32,000 nucleotides of DNA from Synechococcus sp. A15-24. GTDB taxonomy: Bacteria; Cyanobacteriota; Cyanobacteriia; PCC-6307; Cyanobiaceae. Positions 5,122 through 11,968 of the stretch are shown piece by piece (position 1 is the stretch's first letter; each line of letters starts with the position of its first letter). The notes below the pieces were generated by a model. It did not search any database and had not been told where the DNA came from. It saw only the letters and a list, made by a program, of their open reading frames with translations. Made by a program: the position numbers and the translations under genes. The stretch lies in contig NZ_CP047960.1 in the NCBI RefSeq assembly GCF_014280195.1, positions 1,830,001-1,862,000 on the forward strand. The letters run 5' to 3'.

Positions 5122-6270
5122 ATGCCCCGAAGCATCGGCATCGTGACGGCGGCGGACAGCCGCGAGCGCAGCCATGGTCAGCTGCACATCTATGACGGTG
5201 AGGGCAAGGGCAAGAGCCAGGCCGCCCTGGGAGTGGTGCTGCGCACCATCGGCCTCGGCATCTGTGAACAACGACGCACTCGGGTGTTGCTGCTGCGCTT
5301 CCTCAAGGGTCCAGGCCGCGCCTACGACGAAGACGCCGCCATCGAAGCGCTGCAGCAGGGTTTCCCGCATCTGATCGACCACCTGCGCACGGGCCGTGCC
5401 GATCACTTCACCGCTGAAGAAGCCACCCGCTTCGATCGGGAGGAAGCCCAGCGGGGCTGGGTGATCGCCAAAGGAGCCATCGCCAGCGCGCTCTATTCGG
5501 TGGTGGTGCTGGATGAACTGAACCCGGTGCTGGATCTGGGGCTGCTGGACGTGGAGGACGTTGTCAACACACTCAGGCAGCGGCCGGAGGGCATGGAAAT
5601 CATCGTGACCGGCCGCGCGGCACCTGCACCCTTGGTGCGGGTGGCGGACCTGCACTCCGAGATGCGGGCGCACCGGCGGCCAGGGCTGGAGGAGGATCGG
5701 GTGATCCCGCTCAACATGAGCAGCGGCATCGAGATCTACACCGGCGAAGGCAAGGGCAAATCCACCAGCGCCCTCGGCAAGGCGCTGCAGGCGATTGGAC
5801 GGGGCATCAGCCAGGACAAGAGCCACCGGGTGCTGATCCTGCAGTGGCTAAAAGGGGGCAGCGGCTACACCGAGGACGCCGCCATCGCCGCGCTGCGGGA
5901 CAGCTATCCCCATCTGGTGGATCACCTTCGCTCCGGCCGTGATGCCATCGTCTGGCGCGGCCAGCAGGAACCGATCGATTACGTGGAAGCGGAACGGGCC
6001 TGGGAGATCGCCCGCGCTGCCATCTCAAGCGGGCTCTACAAAACCGTGATCCTCGATGAACTCAACCCAACGGTGGATCTGGAGCTGCTGCCGGAGGAGC
6101 CGATCGTGCAGACGCTGCTGCGCAAACCGACGGAAACCGAAGTGATCATCACCGGCCGCTGCAAAAACCAGCCCGCTTATTTCGATCTGGCCAGCATCCA
6201 CTCCGAGATGGTGTGCCACAAGCACTACGCCGAGCAAGGCGTGGACCTCAAGCGAGGAGTGGATTATTGA
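5122..6270 (+). CDS. cobO: cob(I)yrinic acid a,c-diamide adenosyltransferase-like protein with two tandem CobA/CobO/BtuR domains
   Basis: Two parallel halves each carry the P-loop (YDGEGKGKSQAALG and YTGEGKGKSTSALG) and the VLDELN motif. The C-terminal HKHYAEQGVDLKRGVDY tail is typical of CobA-type enzymes. Confidence 0.75.
   Translation: MPRSIGIVTAADSRERSHGQLHIYDGEGKGKSQAALGVVLRTIGLGICEQRRTRVLLLRFLKGPGRAYDEDAAIEALQQGFPHLIDHLRTGRADHFTAEEATRFDREEAQRGWVIAKGAIASALYSVVVLDELNPVLDLGLLDVEDVVNTLRQRPEGMEIIVTGRAAPAPLVRVADLHSEMRAHRRPGLEEDRVIPLNMSSGIEIYTGEGKGKSTSALGKALQAIGRGISQDKSHRVLILQWLKGGSGYTEDAAIAALRDSYPHLVDHLRSGRDAIVWRGQQEPIDYVEAERAWEIARAAISSGLYKTVILDELNPTVDLELLPEEPIVQTLLRKPTETEVIITGRCKNQPAYFDLASIHSEMVCHKHYAEQGVDLKRGVDY
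6225..6270 (+). repeat. attL-like direct repeat, the functional last 15 codons of cobO
   Basis: The 46-mer CTACGCCGAGCAAGGCGTGGACCTCAAGCGAGGAGTGGATTATTGA matches 11923-11968 at 39/46 positions in direct orientation. Confidence 0.85.
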
Positions 6271-6281
6271 GGCCTCGTAAG

Positions 6282-6302
6282 AGTTTGTACGAAGTTTGTA
6301 TA
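6282..6302 (+). promoter_or_regulatory. left-end tandem motif AGTTTGTACGAAGTTTGTATA (candidate integrase arm-type site)
   Basis: 19/21 identical to 11854-11874 in the same orientation. Further AAGTTTG(T/G) copies occur at 6461-6468 and 6776-6783. Confidence 0.5.
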
Positions 6303-6741
6303 CCGGAATCACTTACACAAATCCGCGAAACAGATAGCACCCGATTGATTCTCAATAGGAGAGAGTTTATTGAGAAAAGGTCTTCGGTTCGGCTTCAAAT
6401 GAACGACCGCTTATCCGCGATAGTCACCACACCACAGCCACATCAACCGATCTAGGGAAAAGTTTGTAGGGACGAACTCGATCGGTTTGAACTAAGGCCT
6501 GGAAGGCACTGCAGCAAGCCGTAAATGTTTCAAGTGGTAAGCCCTGCCTGGAGCGCTAGCTGCTGCTGCAAGGCCGTCTAGCCGTGCTGCTGAGCCTTGG
6601 ACGAAGGGGCTATGGGGGTCAATCAGCACCTTCGTATATACGTAATGACCTCTCAGAAATTTGTCTTGTTTGTTTGAGACTCCTAAGAAAAATGCATTGT
6701 CTTGTTCAATCCTACAGAACTACTGACTTATTCAAAAATCC

Positions 6742-6792: not shown

Positions 6793-8127
6793 ATGACATT
6801 TAGTTTTACTTTTGACAGTGCCACTGGTCACGTAACTATTGCCGAAGGGTCATTCAAATTACCTGCTAGGGCTTTTAAGGGCCGCAAGGAAATTAAAAGC
6901 GTAACTATTCCAGGCTCTGTCCTCTCAATTGGAACGGAAGCGTTTAGAGGCGGCAGTCTGAATAAAATAGTTATTCCTGAGCGGGTAACTACTATTGACC
7001 TTAAAGGATTTTATGAAAATAAGCTGAATGAGGCGATTATTGGTGAGTCTGTCAACTCGATTGGCGACTACGCGTTTTATGGAAACCAACTTAAAAGCAT
7101 TGTCATTCCCAATAGTGTTACTTCGATAGGTCAATGGACGTTTGCTCGAAATCAGCTATCTGAGGCTAACATTGGTAATTCCGTCACTTCAATTGGCGGC
7201 GGGGCGTTTTATGATAACCAGTTGACTGAGGTCGTAATTGGTGACTCTGTAACCTCGATTGGCAGAAGGGCTTTCCAGCAAAACGATTTGACCAATATTA
7301 TAATACCTGATTCTGTCACTTCAATTCACAGCTGGGCGTTCAAGAACAACAATCTAACTGAGGTTTTAATACCTGATTCTGTTACTTCAATTGGCTCCGG
7401 GGCGTTCATTGGCAACAATCTAACTGAGGTTTTAATACCTGATTCTGTCACTTCAATTAGCAGCGGGGCGTTCAAGAGAAACAAGCTGACTAAGGTTAAA
7501 TTGCCATCAATATTCAAAGACAATCCTCCACATAAAGCATTTGATCTTGGAGTGGAATTTAGCTATTCCGGTGCTGTTGAGCCGACACCTGAGCCAACTC
7601 CAGCTCCTGCACCTGAGCCAACACCAGCTCCTGCACCTGAGCCAACTCCTGAACCTAACGACAATGACTACATTCTACCTACTACAAGAAATTCAATTGC
7701 TGGAACAAACAAGAACAACAAGCTCAACGGTACAAAGTCAAATGATTTTATCCTTGGACTTAGTGGTAGAGACAAAATAAACGGCAAGAATGGTGATGAC
7801 ATCCTTGAAGGTGGCGATAGTAATGACATCCTCAAAGGATCAAAAGGTGATGACTATCTCTTGGGTTCCAAAGGCGATGATGTTTTAATTGGTGGGCGAG
7901 GTGCGGATGTCTTTAAGACATCCAAAGGTGTTGATATAGTTAATGATTTCAGTCTTATACAAGGAGATCGTATTGGTCTATATCAAGACACTATTTATGA
8001 CGTCATTGATGATGTTGATGGAACTCTGATAAGAGTTACTAACAGTATTCGGATGCTTCTAGTAGATCAGGACTATGACGAGTTCTTGGCAGCAGGAAAC
8101 GACGCCATCGCCAGGATTGCTGTCTGA
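6793..8127 (+). CDS. leucine-rich-repeat (BspA-like 22-23 aa units) protein with PEPTPAPA linker and RTX-type Ca-binding nonapeptide repeats
   Basis: About 9 units of the type IPDSVTSIGSGAFxxNxLTEV, a linker EPTPEPTPAPAPEPTPAPAPEPTPEP, and five consecutive nonapeptides GKNGDDILE GGDSNDILK GSKGDDYLL GSKGDDVLI GGRGADVFK. Confidence 0.8.
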   Translation: MTFSFTFDSATGHVTIAEGSFKLPARAFKGRKEIKSVTIPGSVLSIGTEAFRGGSLNKIVIPERVTTIDLKGFYENKLNEAIIGESVNSIGDYAFYGNQLKSIVIPNSVTSIGQWTFARNQLSEANIGNSVTSIGGGAFYDNQLTEVVIGDSVTSIGRRAFQQNDLTNIIIPDSVTSIHSWAFKNNNLTEVLIPDSVTSIGSGAFIGNNLTEVLIPDSVTSISSGAFKRNKLTKVKLPSIFKDNPPHKAFDLGVEFSYSGAVEPTPEPTPAPAPEPTPAPAPEPTPEPNDNDYILPTTRNSIAGTNKNNKLNGTKSNDFILGLSGRDKINGKNGDDILEGGDSNDILKGSKGDDYLLGSKGDDVLIGGRGADVFKTSKGVDIVNDFSLIQGDRIGLYQDTIYDVIDDVDGTLIRVTNSIRMLLVDQDYDEFLAAGNDAIARIAV

Positions 8128-8205: not shown

Positions 8206-8439
8206 TCAAATATCAAGCATTGGTCGCTGCTTTGCCTTAAATTTTCTAGTCGCATAGTTAAAGGTATTGTCGATGATGTCTTTTAGTGCTGGGGACATCG
8301 GTGGTTCGTAAGGTCGTTCATATCTAGGCCTTGGAGAAATACCTTTACTGAAATCTTCACATCTTCCTAGTGAATTGTCAGCCCACTTTTTGAATTCCTC
8401 AACCTCTTTTTTGTAGGAGTCAGACATTGGGTTATTCAT
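8206..8439 (-). CDS. hypothetical 77-aa protein (island)
   Basis: ORF in low-GC DNA. Its ATG overlaps the stop of the upstream ORF by 4 nt (ATGA-type coupling). Confidence 0.45.
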   Translation of the reverse strand: MNNPMSDSYKKEVEEFKKWADNSLGRCEDFSKGISPRPRYERPYEPPMSPALKDIIDNTFNYATRKFKAKQRPMLDI

Positions 8440-8648
8440 TTCTTTGAATCCTTCGTATTTTTGTCGATGAGGTCTAGCAATGAAGGTAGACCAGGTTGTT
8501 GTTGTGGCTTGTTCTGTTCCTTGAGACCCAATTGCTTGAGTCTGACTTGTTCACGTAGTTGATCTAGGTATGTCTGCATTTTCAGATTGTTATTTTTTGG
8601 TAGCTTGTAGTTGTGGTTGAACACCTTTTCGGTCTTCCTCGTACTCAT
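8436..8648 (-). CDS. hypothetical ~70-aa lysine/glutamine-rich protein (island)
   Basis: Starts at internal ATG 8648 (MSTRKTEKVF...). The track ORF upstream of this ATG reads as an out-of-frame shadow of the neighbouring ORF. Confidence 0.4.
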   Translation of the reverse strand: MSTRKTEKVFNHNYKLPKNNNLKMQTYLDQLREQVRLKQLGLKEQNKPQQQPGLPSLLDLIDKNTKDSKK

Positions 8649-8952
8649 CGTGCCAAACCCAGGCCATCCAACCCATACGCCTGGCCTCTTCCATCCGGTA
8701 CCTAAGACCAGTTCGTAATCGTGGCATCGGTCCATAAATATATGGATTCTTATCAAGACCAAACTCCAGCCACCAACCTTGGTTATTTGGAAGGTTCTGA
8801 GGTGGGCTACATACCTTGCAGGATCGATCCACTGCCGTCTTGGCTGTCTTGGTGTCTATTCCCGCGTTGACGTACGTTGTGGCTCCACAGGACTGGCACT
8901 CAATGACTGTCCTTTTTCTGTTGTCTACATAGATTTCTTTAGCTGATTTCAT
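8590..8952 (-). CDS. hypothetical ~120-aa protein with CxxC...CxxC zinc-ribbon-like motif and Trp-rich C-terminus (island)
   Basis: CQSCG-(22 aa)-CKVC. ATG 8952 (MKSAKEIY...) is preferred over the track start at 9009. Confidence 0.5.
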   Translation of the reverse strand: MKSAKEIYVDNRKRTVIECQSCGATTYVNAGIDTKTAKTAVDRSCKVCSPPQNLPNNQGWWLEFGLDKNPYIYGPMPRLRTGLRYRMEEARRMGWMAWVWHDEYEEDRKGVQPQLQATKK

Positions 8953-9010
8953 TATTTGATTGGGTATTAGTTCACCTACATCACGAAGGACGTAGGAGAC
9001 TAATACCAAT

Positions 9011-9192: not shown

Positions 9193-9543
9193 GTTCGCTT
9201 GAAGGTTGTTGTATCCATACAGCATGAATAGTAATATCAAGATGTCCCTTCAATGGACATTGTGATATTCAGATTCAAGCTCGGCGAAAAGATCAAGTAA
9301 ATCTATTTATTTAACTTGTTGTTTGTTTTGTTCATCCAGTAAACAAAGAGTTGATAAGTAGAAACAAAAAGCGTTTCCAAAATCAACCAGGAGTTAGTAC
9401 AAGTTAAAGACAATGTGTCTTGTGGTTAACTTGTCTTTAGGCGGTACTTACAGAATGTCCGTCTCGCTGCGCTCGACCTGGACATTAATAAATGGGAAGG
9501 ATGTCTTCCCCAAAGGTACAAAAGCAACAGTCCCCCCTTCTCT

Positions 9544-9568
9544 TCCCCCTGTATAAGGCAGGGACCGC
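9544..9568 (+). repeat. solitary iteron-like copy downstream of the wHTH gene
   Basis: TCCCCCTGTATAAGGCAGGGACCGC matches the consensus of the 10089-10200 array. Confidence 0.6.
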
Positions 9569-9606
9569 TCTAAACCCAGGTGGGGACTGGTGTCTTAGGG
9601 TTACCT

Positions 9607-10014
9607 CTAACTTGCCTGCTTAGCCCTATCAGAAGCAGTGGCTGTGAAAAATGACATGGCATGTCTTACTGCATCAATCATGTCAGGGTGAACCACACGA
9701 TAAATCCGATGTTTACTACCTTTAGATGACGGCATTAATCCTTCAGCCTGAATAAAACCGTTGTCAAGGAGCAAATCAATGGCATTAATTACCTTTGCTT
9801 TCCCCATATGAAGTGTTTCAGCAATCGCCTTGTGTGACCAATTTGTTGTGCCACCACAGTCTCTACGATCTTTCCATTTCCTGTACATTCTTTTGTCATA
9901 TCGTAGATCCTGATACGCAGATTGATACATCAGGCTATACACAGCTACTGCTGCATAGCCCAATTTTGCTACTTCGGTAATTGGAGGCACGGTGTCTTTA
10001 AGAATAACTGTCAT
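9607..10014 (-). CDS. winged-helix/HTH DNA-binding protein (candidate iteron-binding initiator or regulator)
   Basis: HTH-like segment NWSHKAIAETLHMGKAKVINAIDLLLDNGFIQ followed by a wing-like SSKGSKHRIYRV. The gene is flanked by iteron-like repeats. Confidence 0.6.
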   Translation of the reverse strand: MTVILKDTVPPITEVAKLGYAAVAVYSLMYQSAYQDLRYDKRMYRKWKDRRDCGGTTNWSHKAIAETLHMGKAKVINAIDLLLDNGFIQAEGLMPSSKGSKHRIYRVVHPDMIDAVRHAMSFFTATASDRAKQAS

Positions 10015-10088
10015 TTAGATAATACTTACTTGTGTTCTATTTGGAACGCTTTAGTTGACTAGGTTGTGATCAGGCTCGGAGCGCTAGA

Positions 10089-10200
10089 TCCCCCTATATA
10101 AGTGTCGGATCGCTACTTCCCCCTGTATAAGTTAGGGATTGCCAGATCCCCCTGTATACGGTAGGGATCGATCGTTCTCTCTGTATCAGAGCCGTTTTGC
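10089..10200 (+). repeat. four tandem iteron-like repeats with an exact 29-bp period
   Basis: Copies start at 10089, 10118, 10147 and 10176: TCCCCCTATATAAGTGTCGGATCGC, TCCCCCTGTATAAGTTAGGGATTGC, TCCCCCTGTATACGGTAGGGATCGA, and the degenerate TCTCTCTGTATCAGAGCCG. Confidence 0.8.
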
Positions 10201-10436
10201 TGGATGCGGTAGCACTTTTAGAAGTTTCTATTGATCACCATGAATCTGTATTCGTCTTTCCTTACCTAGGAGCGAGTGGTTTGGTGGCTATTTAATTGTC
10301 CGTTGTGGGTATCCGGAGAGCCGCTGAGAGATGCTTTGGTGATTGTGAATAAGGGATTCATCGTTCGTGCCATTTGAGGCAGGTTGTAGGCGATCCTGAG
10401 TGGAGCAAATTATCAACTAGAAGTCCGTTAGTCATG

Positions 10437-11816
10437 TCATACATATTGCATAACTTCTTGTCCTCTTCCTCCAGACTTTCCAAACTCAAATTCAGTAAGC
10501 TCCTTAGCCTTCACAGCCATATCAAGACGTGCGTAATACCTCTCGCAAACAGCAACGGTATGACCAGCAAGCTTGGCAACGTCATAGATGCCTTTACCTT
10601 GAAGGATAAGGTTGCATATATAAGTGCTCCGCAATGAATACAAGGTGTAGTTGCGATCACTGAAGACATAAGGCTTCAGCGGCTCGTCCATCAACTTCAA
10701 CATATCTGTCCAAGACTGACCCATATACTCTCGTGAGTAAGGCTTCATCTCATGGTAAGGGTTGCCAAAAATGTATGTCTGGTCAGTTACTTCGACACCA
10801 GGACAATGCTTCGCAATGTACTCCTGCTGATACTGCTTCCAATCTTGTAGCTGCTTGTGGACACCATTAGCTGGCACAGTCCGCTGTCTACCTGTCTTGG
10901 ACTTCTTCACGTAGATCACGCTGATCCAGCGGTCAACACGCTTGCCTTCTGACTTCGAGTCCCGACCGACGTTCACTGAGTGGACATCACACCAGCGCAG
11001 TTGATTCAGCTCAACCATGGGTCGCAGCCCACAGTTACGAGCGATGATCACCCAGTGATAGAAGAGGCGATTTGAATAGTGACCTCTGTGATTGGGATTC
11101 TTCTCTGCTCTTTCACAGTTGCGCTTCAATGCAGCCAGAATTTTTCTCCAGTTAGATTCGTCCAGGGGAGGATTAGCATCGAGGTCACTGTCTGTGATTT
11201 TGATTTTTGGAATTAACTTCTTGTAGTCAATTTCCTTGCGCAGCAAGTTCTTGACACGCATAAAATTATCAACAAAGTCTTTGATAACTACTAGCTCTAG
11301 CTTTCTGGTTGACTTAGCTGCAGCCTTTCGCCAAACGGGATAGTCATGAAAGGTCTCCGTTTCTATGTGCTGTGAATGTGAGCATCCCTTCTCCCGCAAG
11401 TAGGGGAGCATGTGCATCCGAAGCGTTCTCTGCTTGTTCTCGTAGGTGTTGTGAGCAAGCAGACCAGCCTCAACCTTTGCGTGCTCACTCGCCAAGAACT
11501 CGTCAACACATCGTTTGATCTCCCAGGTCCTCAGACGAGCACGTACTGGCGGCACAGAAACAGCAGGAGCACCTGCATGCCTGACGACCTCTGAACCCTT
11601 TGGAAAAATCGACTCGGTTTTCCTAAGAGCCGTGTAGGCATCGATGCAGCCATCCAGTGCCTCCTCGATCGTTTCGGCGCCTTCGATCAAACGGGACCTG
11701 TACCTCTTGGTCCCCGGGATCAGCTCGCGGAAATAGAACTTCTGCGGCTCGCCCAAATAAGAGAAAACCACGCCCTTGCCGTTCAGGGCTTTGGCCTTCT
11801 CAGCGATCTTCGGCAC
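10437..11816 (-). CDS. tyrosine recombinase / phage-type integrase (large, ~460-475 aa); start GTG 11816 or TTG 11864
   Basis: Box I-like IIARNCGLRPMVELNQLRWCDV and box II-like LYSLRSTYICNLI...LAGHTVAVCERYYARL, with Arg, His and the terminal Tyr. Confidence 0.85.
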   Translation of the reverse strand: MPKIAEKAKALNGKGVVFSYLGEPQKFYFRELIPGTKRYRSRLIEGAETIEEALDGCIDAYTALRKTESIFPKGSEVVRHAGAPAVSVPPVRARLRTWEIKRCVDEFLASEHAKVEAGLLAHNTYENKQRTLRMHMLPYLREKGCSHSQHIETETFHDYPVWRKAAAKSTRKLELVVIKDFVDNFMRVKNLLRKEIDYKKLIPKIKITDSDLDANPPLDESNWRKILAALKRNCERAEKNPNHRGHYSNRLFYHWVIIARNCGLRPMVELNQLRWCDVHSVNVGRDSKSEGKRVDRWISVIYVKKSKTGRQRTVPANGVHKQLQDWKQYQQEYIAKHCPGVEVTDQTYIFGNPYHEMKPYSREYMGQSWTDMLKLMDEPLKPYVFSDRNYTLYSLRSTYICNLILQGKGIYDVAKLAGHTVAVCERYYARLDMAVKAKELTEFEFGKSGGRGQEVMQYV

Positions 11817-11853
11817 GACCAAGCTCCTGACGAACTGCCAGAAGACTAGCCAA

Positions 11854-11874
11854 AGTTTGTACAAAGTTTGAATA
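11854..11874 (+). promoter_or_regulatory. right-end tandem motif AGTTTGTACAAAGTTTGAATA (candidate arm-type site) overlapping the integrase 5' end
   Basis: 19/21 identical to 6282-6302. It lies 49 nt inside the right att-like repeat and over or just upstream of the integrase start. Confidence 0.5.
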
Positions 11875-11922
11875 ACGGGCCTAGATCAGGCCAAAAACCC
11901 TGCTGCAACAATGCTTTACCGC

Positions 11923-11968
11923 CTACGCCGAGCAGGGCGTGGACCTCAAACGGGGGGTTGACTATTAA
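11923..11968 (+). repeat. attR-like direct repeat, the displaced copy of the last cobO codons (YAEQGVDLKRGVDY*)
   Basis: CTACGCCGAGCAGGGCGTGGACCTCAAACGGGGGGTTGACTATTAA. Homology to cobO begins at the Tyr codon, and the copy is followed 9 nt later by the convergent moeB stop. Confidence 0.85.

Follow-up and report, generated by a model that had tools for sequence, protein, structure and literature searches.

The described elements that lie closest in layout to the one reported here are the tycheposons, known from Prochlorococcus (Hackl et al.) and, as tycheposon-like insertions, from Synechococcus (Grebert et al. 2022). We have analysed a window (the whole stretch of 32,000 nucleotides from position 1,830,001 to 1,862,000 of contig NZ_CP047960.1) of Synechococcus sp. 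A15-24, which contains a small genomic island and, on it, a tandem array of 29-bp repeats upstream of the gene for a 135-aa winged helix-turn-helix (wHTH) protein. The island shares with the tycheposons its small size, an inward-facing tyrosine recombinase at one end, an adjacent short conserved module, variable cargo and attachment (att) repeats, and with the Synechococcus insertions the position of the recombinase at the distal end beside an att remnant. It differs in its target, which is the 3' end of cobO and not the characteristic tRNA or tmRNA, and in having no helicase/primase module.

For the repeats themselves, the nearest counterparts are the promoters of T7-like podoviruses of the Syn5/P60 type. 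The Syn5 promoter has been defined experimentally and the polymerase of Syn5 has just two promoters (PMC3950665, PMC11880802). With promoters of this type the island units have in common their sequence (with sites in the phages S-RIP1, S-RIP2, S-CBP4 and S-TIP37), their orientation, a TATA with a CAGGGAGA start and the hairpin that follows; they differ in being chromosomal, in standing in tandem (2-8 copies with a period of 26-30 bp) and in mixing several lineages within one array.

Satellites such as the SaPIs and other phage-inducible chromosomal islands (PICIs), P4 and the PLEs are likewise islands with an integrase that become expressed when a specific helper infects, as we propose for the present island; P4, for example, carries promoters that respond to helper transcription factors. 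Here, the coupling would run through a promoter for the helper's own RNA polymerase (RNAP), not through anti-repression or activators, and the helper would be a T7-like podovirus. Of the PICI hallmarks, pri-rep/ori, a capsid gene, a recognised terS and cos, none was found in the island, which has only a phage right-end promoter region. In this last respect it resembles the laboratory plasmids with a T7 origin and concatemer junction (phiOR-junction plasmids), which are replicated and packaged by T7 and which also place a right-end phage-RNAP promoter on a replicon that is not a phage; the island differs from these in being a natural element, and no junction or terminal-repeat sequence was identified in it. 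Finally, the iteron replicons (lambda O/ori, the RepA systems of pPS10 and pSC101, and P1 RepA with oriR and incA) show the same direct repeats upstream of a small winged-helix gene with one copy downstream, a palindrome at the gene promoter and a protein to whose O-like DNA-binding domains the wHTH protein is distantly similar. From these the island is set apart by its one-domain protein, which belongs to no Rep family, by the want of an AT-rich region and of DnaA boxes, by the 29-bp period, and by the nature of the repeats as homologues of phage promoters.

We present evidence that the repeat units are very probably homologues of the promoters of the Syn5/P60-like single-subunit (T7-type) RNAPs of Synechococcus podoviruses, and that the array is likely to be a stack of such promoters through which an infecting podovirus would switch the island on.

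Homology of the repeat units to podovirus promoters

The preliminary description of the window, drawn from its letters alone, had reported four repeat units in an exact 29-bp phase and a fifth copy behind the wHTH gene in the same orientation. Both statements hold: the starts of the four units are 29, 29 and 29 nt apart, and the fifth copy is found 38 nt past the stop codon of the 135-aa open reading frame (ORF). Coordinates are given throughout in window numbering on the plus strand (Table 1), the units themselves being read in the minus-strand direction, i.e. in the sense of the wHTH gene, an orientation common to all five. The array units lie 75-186 nt upstream of the ORF, and Tandem Repeats Finder (TRF) gives a period of 29, with 3.2 copies and a score of 109, over positions 10078-10170. 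The 14-nt pattern TCCCCCTRTATAMG has four exact matches in the window and, with up to two mismatches allowed, five, where shuffled sequence would give 0.19; a count of five did not arise in any of 100 shuffles.

Scanning IMG/VR with a single unit, CACKTATACAGGGRGA, gave about 100 single matches, judged to be consistent with chance; a separate scan of IMG/VR for adjacent copies gave only a collagen-like coding repeat. Two contigs (our loci L128 and L079), both of them T7-like cyanopodoviruses, had two matches each, one 12 nt past the stop codon of the large terminase (TerL) and the other inside the RNAP gene; the paired copies share at least 20 nt within a contig and differ between the contigs, so that they co-vary per genome. 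In four cultured phages, S-TIP37 (L172), S-RIP2 (L174), S-CBP4 (L175) and S-RIP1 (L176), one exact sequence of 13-21 nt occurs exactly twice, both times on the strand of the genes: one copy follows the stop codon of TerL by 3-7 nt, and the other is 552-815 nt inside the RNAP gene. The sequence contains the island core TATACAGG and includes (T/G)TATA(CAGG). Syn5 likewise has its promoter, ATTGGGCACCCGTAA, exactly twice in the genome: position 4929 is within the RNAP gene, and position 44797 is 6 nt beyond the stop codon of TerL. The RNAP-internal sites occupy homologous codons (…IQGETP… versus …KQGDIP…). Because the two places are the same and the codons are homologous, we regard the two-copy sequences of the other phages as positional homologues of the Syn5 promoter; the concerted divergence of the two copies is as would be predicted for a co-evolving polymerase-promoter pair. 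Candidate promoters can be named for the polymerases of S-RIP2 (TCCCTGCCTTATACAGG) and S-CBP4 (GTAACCACGGGTGTATACAGG). Phages of the cognate type infect Synechococcus WH7803, WH8101, WH8109 and CB0101, which fits the marine Synechococcus host of the island. A general phage promoter that recurs many times was considered and, in that form, rejected, the motif not being recurrent in the Oinezvirus-like phage AP013546. As a separate observation, L128 carries a partial tRNA-Leu-like sequence after its integrase (6840-6890), which is likely the attP of that phage and unrelated to the cobO att site of the island.

A position matrix built from 12 phage sites alone was run on both strands of the window. 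Its top four positions are the fifth copy (9542, 33.6 bits) and the three well-preserved units of the array (10116, 25.0 bits; 10087, 24.9 bits; 10145, 19.3 bits), and the degenerate copy comes sixth with 10.8 bits; when the island was shuffled 200 times, the best scores averaged 6.8 and went no higher than 19.2. The fifth copy is identical over 20 consecutive nt to the S-RIP2 site after TerL. Furthermore, the 12 nt upstream of the TATA, which played no part in gathering the units, match one of six phages with three or fewer mismatches in 46 of 102 island units, where shuffles lead one to expect 0.35, and single arrays mix specificity variants of the S-RIP1, S-RIP2 and L128 types. As we understand its anatomy from these alignments, a unit would consist of a lineage-variable upstream specificity block (…GATCCGACAC / …GGTCCCTGCC), the element T(A/T)TA and an initially transcribed CAGGG(A/G)GA.

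The surroundings of the fifth copy point the same way. It lies in a non-coding block with 73% identity to L128 1304-1537. By homology this block corresponds to the spacer between TerL and thyX in T7-like cyanopodoviruses, and it is collinear with six phages (alignment A4). The block holds a fossil of the TerL 3' end, about 35 nt with the stop codon (~9570-9605), between the wHTH stop codon and the fifth copy; then the fifth copy itself, its initially transcribed sequence (GGGGGAAGAGAAGGGGGGAC / GGGGGAAGAGAAGGGTGGAC) and a conserved hairpin at 9494-9510, which was flagged as terminator-like. On this comparison the island has evidently captured a TerL-end segment of a phage.

About 50 wHTH loci were compared, Synechococcus single-cell genomes included. 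Nearly always, the gene that immediately precedes the wHTH gene, and is read in the same direction, is a tyrosine integrase from one of three families, and in about 30 related loci an array of 2-8 tandem units, always gene-sense, lies between the two, with a spacing whose mode is 29 bp and whose range is 26-30 bp. That the repeats are conserved in homologous elements is borne out by the core, which has 104 matches within the 18.8 kb of upstream regions (45 loci), compared with 19 in 152 kb elsewhere on both strands; the arrays hold their place and orientation though the proteins are only 51-75% identical and the integrases are of three families. A logo of 103 units has some 26 conserved positions of every 29, in the order RATCCS and, after three or four positions of weak conservation, YKTATACAGGGRGA, and the promoter-critical positions are nearly invariant. 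Copy number varies among near-identical elements (two in L001, four in the window, six in L009 and seven in L010), and the fifth, downstream copy is conserved in the closest clade only.

The reading of the repeats in the preliminary description stands in part: they look like functional cis-elements, are conserved and are tied to a wHTH gene in a small integrase-bearing island. Their identity as iterons of a Rep/O-type origin finds no support, the units being homologous over about 26-30 nt to podovirus RNAP promoters and pointing into the gene as promoters do. Other roles for the unit were tried and set aside. A likeness to lambda-type iterons (ATCCC...GGGAT), on comparison with the lambda ori, is one of style only, and a hairpin in RNA or DNA within each unit (TCCC...GGGA) finds no covariation at the putative paired positions in 101 distinct units. 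Sites for the integrase arm or for a recombination directionality factor (Xis/Cox-like) were also considered. The array lies 1.8 kb from the att core, and we conclude that it is not an integrase site because its motif is constant while the integrase changes among three families and because the arm repeats adjacent to the core are of a different, unrelated sequence.

The winged-helix protein and its promoter

The assignment of the ORF at 9607-10014 to the winged helices is upheld by an AlphaFold2 (AF2) model (pLDDT 77.8) with the topology H-beta-H-H-wing followed by two short C-terminal helices. The protein belongs to a small, closed family: when 1.84 billion representatives were searched with a profile, about 130 clusters at 50% identity came up, nearly all of small proteins, and 306 close relatives from marine metagenomes include none with a Pfam domain. 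The window protein has no Pfam match and members of its family only weakly match HTH_36, TrmB and NirdL; NCBIfam gives weak matches to Sta1/Lrs14, PDB profiles are equally weak and lead to Lrs14, Sta1 and MarR regulators, and the PDB matches are generic winged helices. No homologue was found in 72,556 plasmids.

A kinship with Rep/O/DnaD-like families, raised in the preliminary description, is to some extent present. The annotated PHROG matches of the family are almost all replication-initiator (O-like, DnaD-like) DNA-binding domains, with phrog_270 matched by 28 of 50 members (best E-value 2e-7), phrog_391 by 26 of 50 (4e-8) and phrog_678 by 24 of 50 (1e-6), and the nearest viral structure predictions in BFVD are the N-termini of phage HTH or replication-initiator proteins of 200-350 aa. 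The match to the O-like profile covers the DNA-binding-domain part alone (positions 32-104 of 298), however, and none of Rep_3, Phage_rep_O, RepA or other Rep/O models in Pfam or NCBIfam was reached. We therefore describe the protein, from such comparisons, as an apparent stand-alone relative of an origin-binding domain, with nothing that ties it to the repeats.

The gene appears to have a host-type promoter of its own (Table 1). In the window a TATTAT lies 4 nt before the ATG, and across homologues TATATA or TATTAT is found 4-12 nt before the start codon; the start region is without a Shine-Dalgarno sequence, and the mRNA is probably leaderless. Beside it is a palindrome with the consensus AAGyGTTCCAnATAGAACACAAG (GTGTTC-N6-GAACAC), present in 43 of 43 loci, those without an array included, and so more universal than the array. 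We infer that the palindrome is the operator of an autoregulated host-type promoter, a more natural site for a dimeric winged helix than the repeats would be. The suggestion that the repeats might be autoregulatory operators accordingly loses to this separate and better conserved site, which is the more likely one; by eye, palindrome and repeat unit have no clear similarity. The palindrome was not found at meaningful places in phage genomes.

Homologues of 130-141 aa are also encoded by Oinezvirus-like temperate T7-like marine phages, namely AP013546.1 (L052/L053, 30667-31633) and IMG/VR loci L054-L066. In these the homologue opens the late arm. AP013546 and 8 of the 13 IMG/VR loci have it immediately before TerL, and in four more it lies at a greater distance upstream of that gene. 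Ahead of it stand a GC palindrome (CACCCCCCATGGGGGGTG), a stretch with ...GCGTAAG at its end, one to four direct repeats spaced at about 30-35 bp and, near the start codon, a TATCTGT; in these phages the protein may act in origin binding, packaging or regulation. The two-copy rule was not seen in AP013546, whose RNAP gene was found to share no sequence with the DNA that precedes the wHTH homologue. The TerS gene of phages lies directly upstream of terL, as these wHTH homologues do, but the island itself is without terL, and the wHTH protein is not similar to TerS: no TerS family is among the PHROG matches of 50 members of the wHTH family, and no TerS was among the top 50 PDB or BFVD Foldseek matches.

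The island and its genes

The GC content falls to 39-49% between ~6270 and ~11920, from 60-71% in the flanks, and a 44-bp direct repeat (D5), whose copies are 86% identical and 5,698 bp apart, delimits the same segment; with these two boundaries the size, at first put at 5.6 kb, is refined to about 5.7 kb. No tRNA was found adjacent to the island, and the MoeB and CobO proteins encoded on its flanks are identical to those of the cultured strain A15-24. Read from right to left, the integrase comes first, followed by the array and the wHTH gene; after some 600 bp without coding sequence come three small genes and, in the opposite orientation, the cargo gene (Table 1).

Table 1. Positions of the features of the A15-24 island
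Feature	Position	Strand	Sequence, content or evidence
attL core, last 44 nt of cobO (corrinoid adenosyltransferase; 5122-6270)	6225..6268	plus	GC drop starts here; direct repeat D5
Probable integrase arm-type sites beside att core	6269..6306	plus	AAGTTTGTAC twice; direct repeat D7
Cargo gene, BspA-type LRR and RTX calcium-binding repeat protein	6793..8127	plus	Pfam LRR_5 1.7e-57, HemolysinCabind 1.1e-14
Three small conserved island genes	8206..9009	minus	Zn-ribbon 8590-9009, 108-aa ORF 8436-8762, 77-aa ORF 8206-8439
Phage-derived non-coding block	9337..9606	minus	homologue of the TerL-thyX spacer of T7-like cyanopodoviruses
Fifth copy, probable S-RIP2-type phage-RNAP promoter	9542..9571	minus	GCGGTCCCTGCCTTATACAGGGGGAAG; best matrix match in window
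Repeat unit 5	9544-9568		TCCCCCTGTATAAGGCAGGGACCGC; orientation as units 1-4
wHTH gene, 135-aa single-domain winged helix	9607..10014	minus	AF2 model, homologue searches, PHROG matches
Putative own host-type promoter region of wHTH gene	10019..10049	minus	-10-like TATTAT 10019-10024; palindrome GTGTTC-N6-GAACGC 10032-10049
Tandem array, four probable phage-RNAP promoter copies	10078..10203	minus	29-bp period, reads into wHTH gene; TRF, phage-only matrix
30-nt putative promoter windows in array	10087-10116, 10116-10145, 10145-10174, 10174-10203		S-RIP1/L128-type (10087-10116), S-RIP2-type (10145-10174), degenerate (10174-10203)
Repeat unit 1	starts 10089		TCCCCCTATATAAG
Repeat unit 2	starts 10118		TCCCCCTGTATAAG
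Repeat unit 3	starts 10147		TCCCCCTGTATACG
Repeat unit 4, degenerate	starts 10176		TCTCTCTGTATCAG
Tyrosine integrase, inward-facing, beside attR	10437..11864	minus	PF00589 (weak), phrog_1 5e-17, phrog_216 9e-17
Probable arm-type sites, second copy	11841..11878	plus	overlaps integrase gene start; direct repeat D7, alignment A2
attR core, displaced copy of cobO 3' end	11923..11966	plus	direct repeat D5, L009 junction

In L009 (contig OZSS01003329.1, 3597-5516), a 98%-related element, the cargo end is joined to the integrase through a single 44-bp att core. This junction indicates an attP-type form, from an excised circle or a tandem copy; circularity by terminal overlaps was not found in the loci examined. 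The claim that the island may replicate as a circle after excision is to this degree supported, a circular or attP form being seen, but not as regards an iteron origin of its own. The AAGTTTGTAC repeats, which flank the single core on both sides in the L009 junction and are unrelated to the array, are probably arm-type sites to which the integrase would bind.

The three small genes lie downstream of the promoter copies and in the same direction, and their ORF families are common to 6-7 loci. The Zn-ribbon family has 139 relatives, is abundant in marine sequences and includes none with a Pfam domain; a homologue is also present in a different island, of Synechococcus MIT S9508 (L068 8001-8375), which has neither wHTH gene nor array. 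A hidden replication function for the Zn-ribbon gene was considered and rejected, the family being real and conserved but domain-free and found also in that unrelated island. Domain and profile searches detected no primase, helicase or polymerase among the island ORFs, in agreement with the preliminary description, whose further point that the island would rely on the machinery of a host or helper phage survives as a dependence on a phage.

A 92%-related island at the same cobO/moeB site of another Synechococcus (L001 4316-11310) has two promoter copies and carries as cargo an S8 peptidase with RTX repeats, the backbone being shared with the window island and the cargo swapped. An AT-rich non-coding stretch that follows the phage-derived block (9300-9460, minus strand) contains several inverted repeats; at the corresponding L001 6600-6680 a perfect 16-bp stem, GTTGATAAGTGGAAAC...GTTTCCACTTATCAAC, is seen, which is degraded in the window, and no Rfam family reached the gathering threshold.

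Proposed function of the array

The island is best read, from its sequence relationships, as a phage-RNAP-responsive, tycheposon-like element that would be a satellite or defence island of T7-like cyanophages. As long as no phage infects, expression of the wHTH gene would depend solely on the host-type, palindrome-bearing and probably leaderless promoter of that gene. When a cognate podovirus infects and makes its RNAP, the polymerase would fire from the array and the minus-strand genes of the island would be transcribed; on an excised circle, transcription could run round into the integrase, since the Syn5 RNAP is described as highly processive (PMC3950665). Initiation by the phage polymerase at the units, and the role of the induced genes, are what we infer from these homologies. 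Possible purposes are mobilisation, interference, the titration of a polymerase with only two promoters on its own genome, and promoter-primed replication in the style of T7.

Several observations weigh against this reading. Only the Syn5 promoter is experimentally defined, those of the other phages being assigned by positional and structural homology, and the phages carry single copies with no 29-bp tandem stacking; adjacent promoters might interfere with each other. A terminator-like hairpin lies about 30 nt after the fifth copy, an arrangement that is the same in the phages. Some loci (L023, L044, L036 and L038) keep an intact wHTH gene with no recognisable array or with degenerate copies only. 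Neither the island-type protein nor the arrays turned up among the viral contigs of IMG/VR, a collection that may omit small elements without viral hallmark genes, and there is no sign of encapsidation. Lastly, promoters for a phage polymerase leave the binding target of the wHTH protein unexplained, and the likeness of its family to origin-binding domains keeps a replication role alive.

This likeness also bears on the origin first proposed for the locus, in which the wHTH protein would bind the 29-bp repeats, melt the adjacent DNA and recruit replication proteins of the host or a helper, with the circle as a plasmid. The basic replicons of the pPS10, pSC101 and P1 types show a layout of direct repeats, palindrome and small DNA-binding gene much like the present one, initiators are the only consistent annotated PHROG matches of the wHTH family as they are among its BFVD neighbours, and the L009 junction would supply the circle. 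The whole-length homology of the units to phage promoters speaks against such an origin, and in 21 intergenic regions no consistent block of at least 75% AT was found beside the arrays, while 9-mers resembling DnaA boxes occur in only 4 of the 21 loci, at scattered positions and with none recurrent. The single 135-aa winged helix has no second winged helix and no helicase-recruiting or helicase-loader domain, it reaches no Rep_3, Phage_rep_O or RepA model and is matched as weakly by Lrs14, Sta1 and MarR regulators; the promoter palindrome does not clearly resemble the unit, plasmid homologues are wanting and some lineages keep the gene but lose the array. An initiator-plus-origin module is not supported, and we consider an iteron origin very improbable. 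A replication role, where present, would be of the T7 type, i.e. promoter-primed and phage-driven.

A role of that kind would extend the preferred reading of the array as a phage-RNAP promoter stack: the phage replisome and terminase would copy and package the excised island, making it a true satellite. In T7, the RNAP promoters phi1.1A/B and phiOR double as origins of replication, and the promoter region at the right end adjoins the concatemer junction. What the island has copied is exactly the promoter region behind TerL at the right end of the phages. Their two promoter sites, one within the RNAP gene and one at that right end, may be seen as parallel to the primary-origin and phiOR regions of T7; the L009 junction and the Oinezvirus-like wHTH homologues, upstream of TerL behind direct repeats of about 30 bp, are in keeping with it. 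Yet no island sequences are in IMG/VR, homology to a terminal repeat or concatemer junction does not extend beyond the TerL-thyX spacer, the wHTH protein lacks TerS similarity, the cyanopodoviruses already have a gp18-like TerS, and a 5.7-kb unit would need to be packaged as a 7-8-mer, so that we hold an origin or packaging signal of this sort to be unlikely. We are more doubtful still of an operator or decoy array, in which the wHTH protein would bind promoter-like units on the island and on the phage and block or titrate the phage polymerase. A phage has two promoters against up to about nine per island, and the extent of the conserved unit is above the 15 bp that a promoter needs; the ...GCGTAAG before the Oinezvirus-like homologue, followed by direct repeats, resembles by eye the ...CGTAAG end of the Syn5 promoter. 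The additional conserved bases, however, are those of the phage initially transcribed sequence, and the strict sense orientation is needed for transcription but not for a sponge. The least credible account, to which we give almost no weight, is a relic of recombination, with podovirus DNA captured illegitimately, a promoter amplified by slippage and no present function. The TerL fossil beside the fifth copy, the unstable copy number and the one degenerate copy in the window would suit such a history, but the maintenance of place and orientation across diverged proteins and three integrase families, the near-invariance of the promoter-critical positions and the way in which the units track several phage lineages all speak against it.

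In the literature searched we found no report of phage-RNAP promoters on cyanobacterial islands, and the main text of the tycheposon preprint makes no mention of arrays of them. Tentatively, the island might be a minimal parasite or defence element whose multi-specificity phage-promoter arrays, of up to eight units against the two promoters of a phage genome, sense infection and turn on the island genes, compete for the RNAP and serve as T7-type origins through which the phage replisome amplifies the excised circle. For the phages, the "two promoters per genome" rule of Syn5 is extended to four more cultured cyanophages, with candidate promoter sequences, and the arrays offer an explanation for the concerted divergence of cyanopodovirus promoters within each genome; an arms race between phage RNAP/promoter specificity and the island arrays is predicted. 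The A15-24 host and the cognate phages are in culture. If that tentative reading is true, the island would rank as the first satellite-like element in nature to be keyed to a single-subunit RNAP of a phage, and it would be found in a cultured, globally abundant phototroph. Marine Synechococcus and T7-like podoviruses are among the most abundant host-virus pairs of the ocean, and how their islands sense phages and move is largely obscure; a promoter for the RNAP of the infecting phage, carried on the chromosome, would be a very direct sensor of infection and a new wiring principle for phage-inducible islands.

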